From contig OZ024741.1 in the NCBI GenBank assembly GCA_964016885.1, positions 331,638,001 through 331,702,000 of the forward strand: 64,000 nt of DNA, written 5' to 3'. Below are positions 23,811-63,570 of the stretch, in pieces. The stretch is from Eledone cirrhosa. Taxonomy: Eukaryota. The translations under genes were made by a program, and so were the position numbers. Position 1 is the first letter of the stretch. Every line of letters begins with the position of its first letter. Under the pieces are notes generated by a model. That model did no database searches. It saw nothing but the letters and a program-made list of their open reading frames with translations, and was not told the DNA's origin.

Positions 23811-24062
23811 AATGATAAAATAAGTAAGTGGGAATAAAGTTTCAATTTAGCATTTTGTACATATTTTAATATTTTATTCACCTCTGACACGTGTTTTGCC
23901 ATCAATCAGCACAAGGTACAATGAGCTATTATTTCTAGAGTCAAGCCCGACGATCACTGATTGTACCTTGAGCTGATCAATGGTGAAATGCATGCCAAAA
24001 GTGAATAAAATATCTACAAGATGCTAAATTGATACTTTGTTCCCATTTACTTGTTTTATTAC
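23811..24062. repeat. Degenerate inverted repeat, Penelope-like remnant
   Basis: Arms about 23811-23922 and 23960-24062; CTGATCAATGGTGAAATGCATG core resembles 48454-48477. Confidence 0.55.
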
Positions 24063-24298
24063 TAAACTCTGTTAGGGATACCAAAACCAGCAATCACACA
24101 AGGGTGAGTCCTACTTCAGTAGCCTATCCACATAATAGTACTGAGTGCTTAAACTAGTGAACCAACAGTAACTGAACGTTTCACACCAAACAACTATATA
24201 TATATGTTATGTATTTCCGTAGAAAAGATAAAGGAAAGAAGAATGCTCTATGTATAGTACAGAGCTGTTTAATTACATAATAAACAACACAATATAAT

Positions 24299-24372
24299 TA
24301 TTCCATTAGCAAATGTTTCAGGAAACCAGACGATCTTAACAGAAACGTTCAGTTCACTCATCAGGTGAAATA
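24299..24372 (-). ncRNA. Degenerate hammerhead ribozyme motif
   Basis: TATTTCAC-CTGATGA-stem II-GAAAC-ATTTG-CTA-ATGGAATA; homologous to 61258-61331. Confidence 0.55.
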
Positions 24373-25217
24373 TTTATGTTTTGGATATAAGATTTGAAAT
24401 TAATATCTATTAAAAATGAAAGTGAGGCTGAGTTAAAATAACAGAAAAAATACATGTACACACAGATTTAGATATACATACATTCACATACACATAAAAA
24501 TACATGCGTGCATCTATACATACAACCAAATACACACTTACATGAGTGCATAACCGTATGAAGCACATATACACAATCATATGGATACAAGCATATATCT
24601 ACACACAGACAGACACACAGACACACACACATATATTTATATCAAAGAGAGAAAGAGACAAGATTACTTGCCACTAATATATGAGATATCTCAGTCAAAA
24701 TATCAAATCAGAGGCACATAGTTGACTTATACCAAAGTCTCCACTGGAGGGAATACAAGGTAGACAAACTAATATATGAGAGTTTTGCTTGTATTTTATC
24801 TTATTTTGTTTGACCCATTTAGCTTGTTCGCTTTTTTGGCTCAGGTGGTTAATGGCTTCTTAACCATCGTCTCAGTTTGTATGACCTTTTTAACCTATGT
24901 TTATAGCTCTGGTATCTTCATATCCATAGAGCGCTTGTCAACACAATACGGAAGTTGCGTTTCACTAATTTCTACCCGCCGAAATGCGATTCTCGCTAAA
25001 TTTATATTTATATATATATATATATATATATAGATATATATATATTAGGGGGTTGATTGGCAGAGTCCTTTAAGGGTTGGATGGTGGGGGAGGGGTTGAT
25101 AAATGAAGTATAGCTCAGTGCTTGTACAGTCCTCTTTCTCTCAAGCTGTCACATCTTGGGTCAAGGGTGGGAGTCTTAAGACAGTGTTCATGTCTGTCTG
25201 CCACTACACAAACACCT

Positions 25218-25500
25218 GTGAAGGTGTGTGGCTCAGTGTTTAGGTTGTTCGGTTCACAATCATAAGGTCATGAGTTTGATTCCCGGTAGCAGCACATTGT
25301 GTCACTGAACAAGAGACTATTTCACATTGTTCCAGGCCATTGGAAGTTGTGCTTGTAATTCAAGCTACACCCTTTGTCATGCTGTATCTCCCTGAGAACT
25401 ACATATCTGTGGAATGCTCAGCCACTTGCATGTTAATTTCATGAGCAGGCTGTTCTGTTGATTAAATAACAGGAATGCTTGTCAAATCGGATAATGGTTA
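25218..25500 (+). mobile_element. Old tRNA-derived SINE with CORE-like segment
   Basis: TGGCTCAGTG..GAGTTTGATTCCC head, then TGTGTCACTGAACAAGAGACTATTTCAC. Confidence 0.6.
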
Positions 25501-25659
25501 AAATCAGAATACATATATCTCATTGAGTTGAGTTGCATGTTAACAAGCTGGTGCCTCAGAGCCGTTCATCTGTGATACACATGTTATGCATGATGATGAA
25601 TATAATATGTTAAATTGAAACTTCAATCTCTCATTCTTGATATAAACACTCTGGAACTT

Positions 25660-25932
25660 ATCTAAAGTCTGTCTCGACCCCGGAGGCTCATCAGGCCAGT
25701 CATTATCCCAGTTTCTGTTGCGTTAAATGACAGAGTACAAGACTCCTCCCTGGATATGACGCCAGTCCATCACAGGTTTTAACTGCCAGTTATTGCTGGT
25801 ACTCATTTTCAGCGAGCAACGTGAAATGAAGTGTTTTGCTCAAAAAACAAAACACACAACTCAGTCCTGGAATCAAACCCACAGGATTACGATTGCAAGT
25901 CCAACACTATTACCACTAAGCCATGCACCTCC
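25660..25932 (-). mobile_element. tRNA-derived SINE
   Basis: Minus-strand head GGAGGTGCATGGCTTAGTGG..GGTTTGATTCC, then TTGAGCAAAACACTT. Confidence 0.65.
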
Positions 25933-26076
25933 ACAACTTATACCAATAATAAACAGATGACGGCATTAATCTCCAGTTTTAAATGCCAAAGATCTAATTA
26001 ATGTAAATACACTCATTGATGAAACTGCTATCTCCTGTAGTATTTGGTATTACTCATTAAGCGACAATATATATAT

Positions 26077-60286: not shown

Positions 60287-60774
60287 GAGCAGATATCACA
60301 ACAAGCTAAATTGAATATTGTTATTAGAGTGGAAGTTGTTGTTCGGAATGCTAAAGCAAGCTTGTCTTGCAGGTAATAAACCTGTTTTAAGCTAATATAC
60401 TAATATACTCTTTCTTGTATGTATGTTTTTATATATAGTTAGGTTGAGGTTTTTAATATAATTTACAGCGAAAACAAAAATCTAAAAAAATTAAATTGAA
60501 TAAAAAATAAAGCTAAATAAATAAATAAATAAATAAATAAATAAATAAATAAATAAAAAGATTTTGGTCAGACATGGAACACAACTATCTATTTATCTAT
60601 CGATCTATCTATCTAAAGATGCATAACATATCTGTACCAAAACACAGCCACTGCACTTGCTATTAACTAAAATGTGTGCACTCTGAACAACGGGTTGCAG
60701 TTTCTCTACTGCAATCTTACAAGTGGGTAAGTCGTGGCTGGAGGTTGATGAATTAATACCAATGATTTTCGTAA

Positions 60775-61215
60775 ACCTGCGTACGAAAGGCCAGTTATAT
60801 GATGCCTGTGTGAGATGTGCGATGATGCATGGTAGTGAGACATGGGCAGCAACGGCAGAGGATATGCGACGGCTGGAGAGAAATGAAGCAAGTATGCTCT
60901 GTTGGATGTGTAATGTCAATGTACGTGAACGACCAAGCATGGATGAGTTGAGAGAGAAACTGGGTATAAGAGGGATAAGTTGTGGTGTGCAGGAGAGAAG
61001 GCTGAGATGGTATGGACATGTGATGCACATAGAGGATGACCACTGAGTAAAGAAGTGCCAAGAAATCCCAGTAGAAGGAAGACACAGTAGAAGGAGACCA
61101 CAACAATTTGAAGCCCACAAAGAGATGCTGTGCTGAATAGGACCCGTCCCACCCTTGCAAGCAGAGAAAAACGGACGTAAAATGATAATGATGATGATGA
61201 TGATGATGATAATGA
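60775..61215 (+). mobile_element. RTE LINE 3' fragment, subfamily C
   Basis: LYDACVRCAMMHGSETW..RLRWYGHVM; tail matches 34615-34690. Confidence 0.9.
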
Positions 61216-61257
61216 TATATATATATATTATTTATATAATAAACACCACAATATGAT

Positions 61258-61331
61258 TATTCCATTACCTAAGGTTTCATGAAATTAGACGATTCTAACA
61301 GAAACGTCCAGTTTGCTCATCAGATGAAATA
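61258..61331 (-). ncRNA. Type I hammerhead ribozyme motif
   Basis: TATTTCAT-CTGATGA-GCAAACTGGACG..CGTCTAATTTCAT-GAAAC-CTTAG-GTA^ATGGAATA. Confidence 0.7.
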
Positions 61332-62031
61332 TTTATATATATATATATGCAAGCAGGGAAAAGCGGACGTAAAAGGATGATGATGATGATGATGATGATA
61401 AATATTTAAACAGCTAAGCAATACAGTAGGATTTATTTCTAGCATTTACATATGTTTCATTGCTATGAGTTTTTTGTCTTGAAATCGCTATTCTCAATAA
61501 TCAATCAGGAAAATTTGAATTCAAATACGGTGGAATATTTCTTACTCCATATATGGCAAATTATCAAAACAGAGTGACAATCTCCATTAATTCAGTCCCT
61601 ATAAACTGGGAGGAGGAGAATACAGGTTCAAAAGAAGCATAAGAATATAAATAAACATATACAAATTCATAAAGATACAATATATATATATATATATATA
61701 TAAAGGGAAGAAGAGGAAGAAAATAATAAAGAAAGAGAGGAGAAAATTTATGTTGAGACTGTCCTATATATAGGTTACTCTAACTCTGAACTAGAAAAAC
61801 CGAAAACGATATCTCGTATACCTATATATATATATATATATATATATATATGTAAGTATGTATATATTGAATAGTTAGCGTCCGATGGCTGAGTTCACAC
61901 CCTTTCAATGTTGGAAGGCATAAGCTCAGTCATTGGGTCTTACTAGTCTAAACAGGTAACTCCCAATCTACCCTTGCAAGCAGGGAAAAGTGGACGTAAA
62001 ATGATGATAAACACACACACACACATATATT

Positions 62032-62433
62032 ATCATCATTTTACGTCCGCTTTTCCCTGCTTGCAAGGGTGGGACGGGAACTGATTCTGGCTTGATTTCT
62101 ACAGCTGGATGCCCTTCCTAACACCAACCTCATTTACAGTGAGTGCTGGGTGCTTTTTTGCCGTGGGACCTACACGAGCACTTTACAGTGAGTGCTGGGT
62201 GCTTTTTTGCTGTGGCACCTCCACAACCACTTTGCAGTGGAATGATAGGGACCCCAGTCCCTAGGAATGATAGGGACCCCAGTCCCTATCATCTCATTTC
62301 TACAGCTGAGTAAACTGGAACAATGTGAAATAAAGTGTCTTGCTCAAGGAAACAACACATCACCCGGTCTGAAAATTGAACTCACAACCTTTCGATTGCA
62401 AGGCCAATGCTCTAACCACTAAGCCATGTGCCG
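62032..62433 (-). mobile_element. RTE-tailed SINE with internal duplications
   Basis: Like 51876-52222 but with a duplicated about 50-bp unit (62141-62239) and a duplicated GGAATGATAGGGACCCCAGTCCCTA. Confidence 0.88.
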
Positions 62434-63241
62434 TCTTATATATATATGAATCTTGCCATTTGATGAACAGTGTCTGAATTCTTTTCTAACTATCCATATA
62501 GATGTGGTTTTGCATGTTAATTCTGAAATCATATCAATCTAGCTAGCCTATCCATTCAACTATTCATGTGTTTATCTGCTCATCCTCTCGCTCTCTATCT
62601 ACCTGATGCCTGATGGCTGACCATCTGTCTGCTGTTGAGTCAGTGCATCAGTGAATTAGAGAACCAGTGAACCATGTCATTGTTCATTTTTATGTTAGCC
62701 CAGCATGAGATTCACAGCTCAGTGAAGCTTATAACACAAACAATACTGAAGTGATAATGGATGACAAGAACTGTAACTGACTTAACAAGACATATATCTG
62801 TCCAGCTGTCCATCCATCCAACCATCCGTCCAACCATCCAACCATCCAACCATCCATCCTTCCATCCATAACCATCCCTCAATCCATCCACCCAACCATT
62901 CATCTATCTATCCAAACATCCATCCATCCAACCCCTGCCATACGCATCATATACATGTATGAAACCAGAAACGATATCAAGTAGCACAATTATATTTCTA
63001 GAACAATGCTCACAAGGAATATGGCAAAGCTGAGAAATCTTGACATTCAGACAACATTGAGGTTTTAATGTAGTTTTAGCGTGTGAAATACAGCTTAACA
63101 TTTCAAAGAGGAATATACCTTAATCTCAACTCTACCAGTAGAGGACAAGTGTGCAAGAAATGAACACTAAAATTAAATGACATCTGCATATATATATGTA
63201 TATATATATACATATATATATATATATACATATATATATAT

Positions 63242-63570
63242 ATATACAATATATTAACAAATGGAAACTATATTTATAAAACCATATTTATTTCATTATA
63301 CATATTTCAAGGGCCACCAAGGCAGATTATGGTGTGCTTTCATCAGATAAAATATAATATAGATTAGTTTTATAAATAAATATTGACATACCCTGAAAAA
63401 TGCAACCTTCATGGAAATATGTATAATGAAATAAATATGGTTTTATAAATATAGTTTCGATTTGTTAATATATTGTATATTTACTCCAATTAATTTGTTG
63501 AGTGCTTTATATCAGTTATAAAAATATTTTGCTTGTTGTATCCCAACAAATTAAATATAACCTCTACATA
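63242..63570. mobile_element. Penelope-like remnant: inverted arms, tail and hammerhead at 63289-63354 (-)
   Basis: Arms 63242-63308 and 63414-63480; rearranged version of 28841-29110. Confidence 0.7.

Follow-up and report, generated by a model that had tools for sequence, protein, structure and literature searches.

Hammerhead motifs of probable Penelope-like element ends and retrozymes in TA tracts of the Eledone cirrhosa genome

Hammerhead motifs and repeat families of the window

The stretch of DNA analysed here, called the window throughout, comprises 64,000 nt of the Eledone cirrhosa genome (genome size 3.0 Gb; assembly GCA_964016885.1, contig OZ024741.1, positions 331,638,001 to 331,702,000) and is dense in TA and other microsatellites. 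It holds short copies of eight repeat families, F1 to F8, whose hammerhead motifs, judged from the sequences of the families, are real type I hammerheads (Table 1). By the reading frames and motifs found upstream, F2, F4 and F5 are identified as the 3' ends of Hydra-type Penelope-like elements (PLEs) and F7 as the 3' end of a Neptune/Nematis-type PLE. F3 and F8, tandem monomers free of an open reading frame (ORF), are classified as retrozymes without long terminal repeats (non-LTR retrozymes). We consider it quite probable that the motifs belong to 5'-truncated PLE ends and to two ORF-less tandem retrozymes, likely inserted into TA tracts by the reverse transcriptase (RT)-endonuclease proteins of PLEs.

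A first-pass annotation, made by a model from the letters alone, had described five complete hammerhead motifs and five minimal or partial cores. Motifs are present at all of these places, but three of the minimal cores were misread. All five complete motifs were found, on the minus strand, and three of them (cores at 63346, 55488 and 29032) pass a strict descriptor of the type I hammerhead. In 100 local dinucleotide shuffles the same descriptor gave a mean of 0.06 matches and a maximum of one. The other two, at 61258 and 24299, fail the descriptor because their helices are worn in these copies; other copies of F1 hold the intact motif. What had been read as cores at 28074, 48454 and 23973 is CTGATCA or CTGATGA of the helix II 3' strand and not the first core half, which in family copies lies 82 nt (F4) or 60 nt (F5, F6) upstream of the GAAA. 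Also CCGACGA at about 23947 was rejected as the core of F6, since the family core is canonical and located at 23921. The supposed partial core at 32978 belongs to a complete motif, of which the 3' half is left after loss of the 5' half at an inversion junction; at 32497 core and helix II are there, but helices I and III are weak. Of the palindromic helices III pointed out for most motifs, a perfect form follows GAA seven times compared to 2.4 expected, a number reached in one of 200 shuffles.

Among the single window motifs of F1 to F8, the segment 55405–55497 folds with a z-score of -2.97 against shuffles and six others with -0.1 to -1.6. Single copies fold only modestly better than shuffles, and therefore the support rests on the families. 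A DNA search of the same genome yielded first-look candidates, with the best 40 scored per family, which are not copy numbers (F1 3097, F2 708, F3 2547, F4 2410, F5 3741, F6 238, F8 2494); F7 is known from nine incidental matches in fetched loci. The abundance proposed earlier holds. The core pattern CUGANGA + GAAA + UH is present in F1, F2, F3, F6, F7, F8, canonical F5 and F4b/c. A descriptor allowing for long loops found 460 matches with a canonical core, forming 27 clusters, in 1.58 Mb of fetched loci (partly redundant, and selected), with 13 to 95 nt between the core halves, versus 1, 0 and 0 matches in three shuffles. The named structures are paired in 88.5% of cells for F4 (19 copies) and 90.4% for F5 plus F6 (22 copies), compared to 25–39% when slid; both sides are changed in 16 and 11 cells, respectively. 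Across subfamilies the helices covary, and those of F4 show compensatory changes in helix I.

A scan with Rfam, proposed as a check on the motifs, returned no hammerhead among the matches listed (150 of 247 in the window), and for eight loci none was found at gathering score. Rfam misses these ribozymes because of helix II insertions of 31–95 nt. Since a long helix II hides such forms both from Rfam and from descriptors with a short spacer, hammerhead counts in such genomes may be too low, and claims that some PLE clades lack hammerheads may rest on undercounting. Together with the weak folds of single copies and the resemblance of many loci to inverted repeats, the silence of Rfam could suggest chance matches or simple DNA palindromes, like the hairpins of miniature inverted-repeat transposable elements, with no link to ribozymes. 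This explanation is contradicted by the descriptor counts in real and shuffled DNA, the compensatory changes in F4, the PLE ORFs upstream and the inverted arms, whose outer ends are not alike as those of terminal inverted repeats would be. The family data already refute it, and we give it practically no credence.

More hammerhead families were seen outside the window (loci L053, L126, L161, L041, L242, L252 and L298), with core halves 46–95 nt apart and a palindromic helix III; part of these may be additional retrozymes. In the predicted folds of F3, F4, F5 and F8 the CUGA core pairs with the helix III 3' strand, an alternative, inactive shape.

Table 1. Repeats of the window, with hammerhead-related elements first (window coordinates; LINE and SINE, long and short interspersed nuclear element)
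Positions	Strand	Family	Description
19482..19950	.	F7 relative	Head-to-head pair cut short 3' of the ribozyme; beyond the coordinates of the first-pass annotation
23807..23922	-	F6	Short arm in inverted orientation, with the GAAA half, the helix II 3' strand and a short 3' end
23921..24164	+	F6	Tailed arm whose first letters are core sequence (ATGA at 23921; the junction removed CTG); GAAA at 23985
24205..24600	-	F1	Tailed copy of greater age with a worn helix III; core 24364-24358; approximate boundary in TG-rich DNA upstream
27907..28073	-	F4 (Hydra type)	Short arm containing the entire ribozyme; core 28068-28062, displaced by an indel (family CUGAUGU, A9U); 82 nt in the helix II region; GAAA at 27979; cleavage predicted after 27968
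28072..28319	+	F4	Tailed arm, begins in the helix II 3' strand (earlier '28074 core')
28802..29109	-	F2 (Hydra type, young)	Tailed copy; core 29032-29026
32173..32248	-	F7	Inverted short arm
32251..32809	+	F7 (Neptune/Nematis type)	Tailed arm holding a minimal hammerhead (core at 32497) in which helices I and III are weak
32886..32971	-	F8 retrozyme	Tail arm; monomer positions ~111-199 past the cut site
32970..33080	+	F8 retrozyme	Short arm with the helix II 3' strand, a palindromic helix III and GAAA at 32979; cleavage predicted after 32992; 100% identity to tandem-array copies
48293..48557	-	F5 (Hydra type)	Tailed arm with variant core 48532-48526, reading CCGUCGU in this copy and CCGUCGA in the lineage; 60 nt in the helix II region; GAAA at 48465; cleavage predicted after 48454
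48558..48617	+	F5	Inverted short arm
55340..55641	-	F3 retrozyme	Covers 0.6 of the 485-nt monomer; core 55488-55482; 55 nt in the helix II region; cleavage predicted after 55413
61228..61336	-	F1	Short copy flanked by TA tracts; core 61323-61317
63239..63410	-	F2	Short arm with whole ribozyme; core 63346-63340
63414..63570	+	F2	Tailed arm, begins at GAAA
16717-18468	-		LINE-type RT copy
20160-21870, 33471-34454, 37064-37936			LINE-type RT copies
40419-41455, 26568-26930, 45412-46327, 58583-59110			SINE-like repeat

Penelope-like ends, retrozymes and insertion into TA tracts

Extending the elements upstream, as had been suggested, led to ORFs with RT and GIY-YIG endonuclease for F2, F4, F5 and F7. 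Thus the earlier wording, a Penelope-like or retrozyme-like system, is right for both of its parts: four families lead into Penelope-type ORFs and two are ORF-less tandem monomers. The assignment to Hydra was made by motifs, with the Hydra reference proteins compared by eye from the supplement of the respective paper; Naiad type was rejected for the flanking ORFs as their motifs are of Hydra type. For F4 a protein probe gave 59,931 candidates, the best 150 of which were scored, and the second half of the ribozyme is located 620–1306 nt past the ORF end in 39 of 50 loci (one duplicated). At one F4-type locus (L151) a frame of 631 codons is open and shows YRDD, CNCHLPDKC (CxCx5C) and a motif of GIY-YIG type; C496 and C498 are invariant among 80 homologues, and the catalytic E and N are surrounded by CxxC and CxH. 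The best-scoring named homologue of an element protein comes from Argonauta hians, and in two homologues Pfam found only sub-cutoff matches to GIY-YIG and RVT_1. F5 is about 4 kb long, counting ORF and 3' untranslated region (UTR); its tail runs into an ORF start bearing RWR and DKT motifs (L047), and two copies with a variant core hold a near-complete ORF, broken by stops and frameshifts. The 3' UTRs of the Hydra-type families here measure 0.7–1.4 kb. A Hydra-type endonuclease is found 1.3–1.4 kb upstream of F2 at two loci (partial ORFs), the best 40 of the 708 F2 candidates being 97–99% identical. F7, likewise judged from two loci with partial ORFs, sits about 260–280 nt after a Neptune/Nematis-type endonuclease; its ORFs are 54–56% identical to the related ORF of L035, which has a CX2-5CxxC linker before the C-terminal GIY-YIG. 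F6 has a canonical core and a 60-nt helix II region and aligns column by column to F5. ORF matches near F1, F3 and F6 (L009, L076, L202) are other insertions across TA tracts and were discarded. A 330-bp period in F1 is a local duplication taking in flanking DNA and was rejected as a retrozyme.

All families share the footprint of Penelope: two fixed 3' ends in (TA)n, 5' ends at scattered positions, and copies joined head to head. Of 75 such pairs, 72 consist of a short arm and a tailed one (F8 28/28, F5 22/24, F4 4/4, F2 6/6, F1 12/13), the tail measuring about 65–150 nt. The TA context noted from the window holds for 75 of 77 F8 ends and 87 of 97 F5 copies, which are followed by (TA)3, compared to 13% of random window positions.

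The F8 monomer is 481 nt long and tandem, its longest stop-free frame being 74 aa; F3 has a period of 485–486 nt, and 10 of 30 loci span two cleavage junctions. Both have a GC content of 0.36 and one type I hammerhead per monomer, with a helix II region of 50–55 nt and a helix III palindrome of 10 nt. An F8 34-mer had 115 exact matches in the genome and its reversed control none; the first 100 of these led to 50 loci with 86 segments, a few from older relatives. Among these matches the median identity across loci is 99%. With respect to the predicted cut, 38 segments have their 3' end 84–96 nt past it and 39 at 193–199 nt; 59 of these 77 cross the predicted cleavage site, and 33 of the 86 segments are longer than one unit, the longest reaching 7.41 units. 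Since a linear monomer cut at both ends offers not more than 96 or 199 nt upstream of these ends, most copies should stem from a circle or an uncut multimer. Hence the very young F8 was likely copied from circular or multimeric RNA.

Insertion may then proceed as follows. A PLE endonuclease would cut both strands of the TA tract, by analogy with the PLE of the anole as studied in vitro (PMC11167929). For each DNA strand, reverse transcription would begin at its own internal site of the RNA, and these two starts would give a short arm and a tailed arm. F3 and F8 would borrow the PLE protein, with a circle or an uncut multimer as template, since the majority of copies run across the predicted cleavage site and many are longer than one unit. 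That the retrozymes obey the short-plus-tailed rule would link them directly to the PLE machinery.

How far the ribozyme takes part in making this template is a separate matter. Retrozyme copies might come from long read-through transcripts of tandem arrays and not from circles, with the longest arrays grown by local recombination and the ribozyme idle in template making. DNA alone cannot separate a circle from an uncut multimer, arrays of 3–7 units exist which could supply such transcripts, and the hammerhead fold of F8 is less stable by 3 kcal/mol than the motif's minimum-energy fold. But the canonical core is kept in 69 of 72 F8 motifs, and both monomers fold better as circles than shuffles do (F8 -115 vs -96 +/- 5, F3 -139 vs -100 +/- 6 kcal/mol). 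Among the matches listed, 7 of 86 F8 segments, from six loci, start within -4 to +1 of the cut site; they include both arms of the head-to-head pair L516, which begin exactly at the predicted cleavage site. The PLE of the anole mainly used unprocessed RNA (PMC11167929), whereas related retrozymes of coral, mussel and axolotl occur as circular RNA (PMC7229834). An origin from read-through transcripts is a real possibility, if somewhat on the doubtful side.

Several results weigh against PLE ends and PLE-borne retrozymes as the source of the motifs. The 631-aa protein has no Pfam match and a search of solved structures gave nothing useful; an ORF link for F1 was seen in only one of 32 upstream flanks, and F6 has none, the ORF seen nearby belonging to another family across a TA tract. 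For F3 and F8 no ORF-linked match was found among the fetched loci, no genome-wide partner search having been made, and the two monomers share only 23-nt AT-rich BLAST matches. The 5-nt interval at the F8 cut site holds five starts, equal to intervals at a hairpin 170 nt away. Covariation, proposed earlier as a check, is seen between subfamilies, but the counts of pairs and pair types are not above those of shuffles, and its controls leave relatedness in. The earlier interpretation as ribozyme-bearing retroelements is supported, though it missed that the clade is Hydra, that helix II is long, that some cores are non-canonical and that F8 is young.

Non-canonical cores of F4 and F5

In F4 the core CUGAUGU (A9U) was found in 43 of 63 motifs, together with G10.1-C11.1; more divergent subfamilies keep A9. 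For F5 a pattern left open at the core gave 441 exact matches and its control none. A hand count of the first 100 gave 54 CUGANGA, 10 CCGACGA, 28 with U at position 6 and 8 other; this pattern under-counts the variant, as it leaves out the largest variant subgroup. A pattern for the 3' end gave 932 matches, the first 100 of which yielded 97 F5 copies. By a linked site, 74 of these are variant, 22 canonical and one other; the core is kept in 67, namely 46 with U6, 17 with U4 and A6, two with C4 and A6, and two other. In this 3'-end sample, the variant lineage CCGUCGA (U4C+A6U) outnumbers the canonical one, and the youngest branches carry the variant core. The core probably changed from canonical to U4C and then to U4C+A6U, because the outgroup F6 has a canonical core. 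The youngest subgroup also loses a helix II extension pair (A to U at column 27).

Near-loss of catalysis is predicted for the variant core of F5, because mutants of the CUGA turn are poorly active: when one type III hammerhead was mutated exhaustively, every single or double change in this turn left low activity, except for a C3-G8 swap (PMC9901934), and U4C and A6C are natural variants of low activity (PMC3088659). As the U4C+A6U lineage kept producing subfamilies, hammerhead cleavage would be dispensable for the spreading of F5. In the predicted folds, the changes of the F5 variant core would weaken the pairing between CUGA and the helix III 3' strand.

Could the variant cores of F5 (U4C+A6U) and F4 (A9U) still be active in the cell, slowly or with the help of a PLE protein or a dimer, so that cleavage matters and the changes tune it? 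Most F5 variant copies keep G8, G12 and the GAAA half, a U4C viroid stays infectious despite low activity in vitro, the activity of A6C is low but detectable (PMC3088659), and the hammerhead of the anole PLE cleaves only with protein (PMC11167929). However, no double mutant rescued the CUGA turn in the type III hammerhead (PMC9901934), and the helix II extension pair lost in the youngest subgroup fits relaxed constraint. Activity of the variant cores is thus unlikely in our view.

The ORFs bear on a further explanation, in which the variant F5 copies are passengers, that is, ends with a dead ribozyme mobilised in trans by the proteins of elements with a canonical core. Their own ORF lineage, 82–88% identical to canonical ORFs and with fixed differences which are mostly synonymous, argues against it, and even in trans the copied RNA had the variant core, so that its cleavage was not required. 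As the bulk of the copies consists of short ends, and the variant ORFs seen were not intact but at best near-complete, in two cases, the idea has some basis, but we hold it to be improbable.

The preferred reading, a lineage which spread with the variant core, rests on figures which also have limits. The median divergences in the 3'-end sample are 1.4% and 2.7% for two U6 subgroups and 3.6% for canonical copies, but such ages depend on the sample, the medians of the first one being 4.5% (U6) and 4.7% (canonical). In a tree of 92 copies computed without the core, 54 of 55 canonical-class copies are on one side of a 99/99 branch, in favour of a separate variant lineage, the bootstrap not being settled and the support values rough. 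Also in its favour, the ORF differences between the lineages are mostly synonymous (34 synonymous vs 25 over 226 codons; ratio of nonsynonymous to synonymous rates, dN/dS, 0.17), but they pool both branches and come from six canonical and two variant copies. Furthermore, a pile-up of F5 5' ends at the cut site is absent, as none of the 97 copies starts within 2 nt of it. Instead, of the 70 copies reaching the core (L321–L410), 42 have their 5' end between -34 and +3 of it, where the stop rate is four to six times that inside the ribozyme; this cluster could be a transcription start or a polymerase stall.

Tentatively, one may picture an autonomous Hydra lineage which lost ribozyme catalysis and overtook its canonical sister, next to an active 481-nt retrozyme which keeps its ribozyme, makes circles and is rolled out by PLE RT from two internal starts. 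If this is true, the hammerhead serves the parasite, the retrozyme, more than the host element. The role of PLE hammerheads is stated as open (PMC8557442), and likewise the movement of animal retrozymes (bioRxiv 10.64898/2026.07.22.740005). For both, the genome offers natural reagents: the paired F5 sister lineages, differing at core positions 4 and 6, and the near-identical F8 family, with two start sites mapped to the base.

Neighbouring repeats and comparison with known systems

Elsewhere in the window, a 48-bp minisatellite with about 270 copies occupies positions 1–13307. Two plus-strand frames are open from the window start to 13134 and 13307, and one plus-strand frame gives a Pro/Thr-rich, mucin-like repeat; by its sequence, the region may be a giant mucin exon. 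Several copies of a LINE-type RT with a PHD-like finger (Pfam RVT_1 and PHD) were seen by self-BLAST, and a SINE-like repeat of about 190 bp is abundant and partly tandem (Table 1). A weak tRNA match at 51883–51946 lies inside a repeat different from the latter, and a run of 200 N is found at 26077–26276.

The closest published counterpart of F2, F4 and F5 is the Hydra clade, with Hydra-1_Obim of Octopus bimaculoides showing TA targeting and a canonical hammerhead (Craig et al. 2021, PMC8557442). The clade shares with these families RW[KR], DKT, CxCx5C, a C-terminal GIY-YIG and the (TA)n target, and with the window elements 5' truncation, inverted copies, a tail and a type I hammerhead near the 3' end. 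However, the Hydra hammerheads examined from the supplement of that paper have canonical cores and loops II of 3–10 nt, whereas 31–82 nt separate the core halves here; F4a carries A9U and F5 U4C+A6U, and F5 measures about 4 kb compared to generally less than 3 kb.

The minimal hammerheads of metazoan PLEs (Cervera and de la Pena 2014, PMC4209133) are alike in that many families occur per genome, copies are mostly truncated, helix III is palindromic and a dimer model was put forward. In most families here helix III has 3–4 bp and helix II is long, and only F7 is near-minimal. That PLE hammerheads sit in truncated copies was already known (PMC4209133; review PMC6765202). PAc, a Poseidon element of Anolis carolinensis (Frangieh et al. 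2024, PMC11167929), also has an AT-rich target and extends both strands; two internal start sites define its tail, as proposed here, and ribozyme mutants leave its insertion in vitro unchanged. PAc belongs to another clade, whereas here the tail is about 65–150 nt long, the two-site rule comes from counts of pairs in the genome, and the core changes arose naturally and are passed on.

F3 and F8 resemble the non-LTR retrozymes of animals in being non-coding, low-GC tandem monomers with one type I hammerhead each which co-occur with PLEs (Cervera and de la Pena 2020, PMC7229834; Li, Clavereau and Pollet 2026, bioRxiv 10.64898/2026.07.22.740005). The dependence of such retrozymes on PLEs was proposed from this co-occurrence and from homology of terminal repeats, the mechanism being left open (bioRxiv 10.64898/2026.07.22.740005). 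F3 and F8 differ by monomers of 481–486 nt, the helix II region of 50–55 nt, the 10-nt palindromic helix III and the approximately 99% identity of F8. Their footprint, (TA)n with two fixed 3' ends and short-plus-tailed pairs, has no description in the accessible parts of these two sources. A 2026 repeat annotation in octopus counts Penelope-like families, without ribozymes in its main text (PMC13282606), and the literature found, mostly outside subscription journals, holds no account of long helix II forms, an inherited U4C+A6U core or the retrozyme footprint.

Summarizing, truncated PLE hammerheads, Hydra elements in TA tracts and animal retrozymes are already known. What goes beyond the literature found, as read from the family sequences, is F8 with its approximately 99% identity and templates across the cut site, the U4C+A6U lineage of F5, and the helix II insertions of 31–95 nt.

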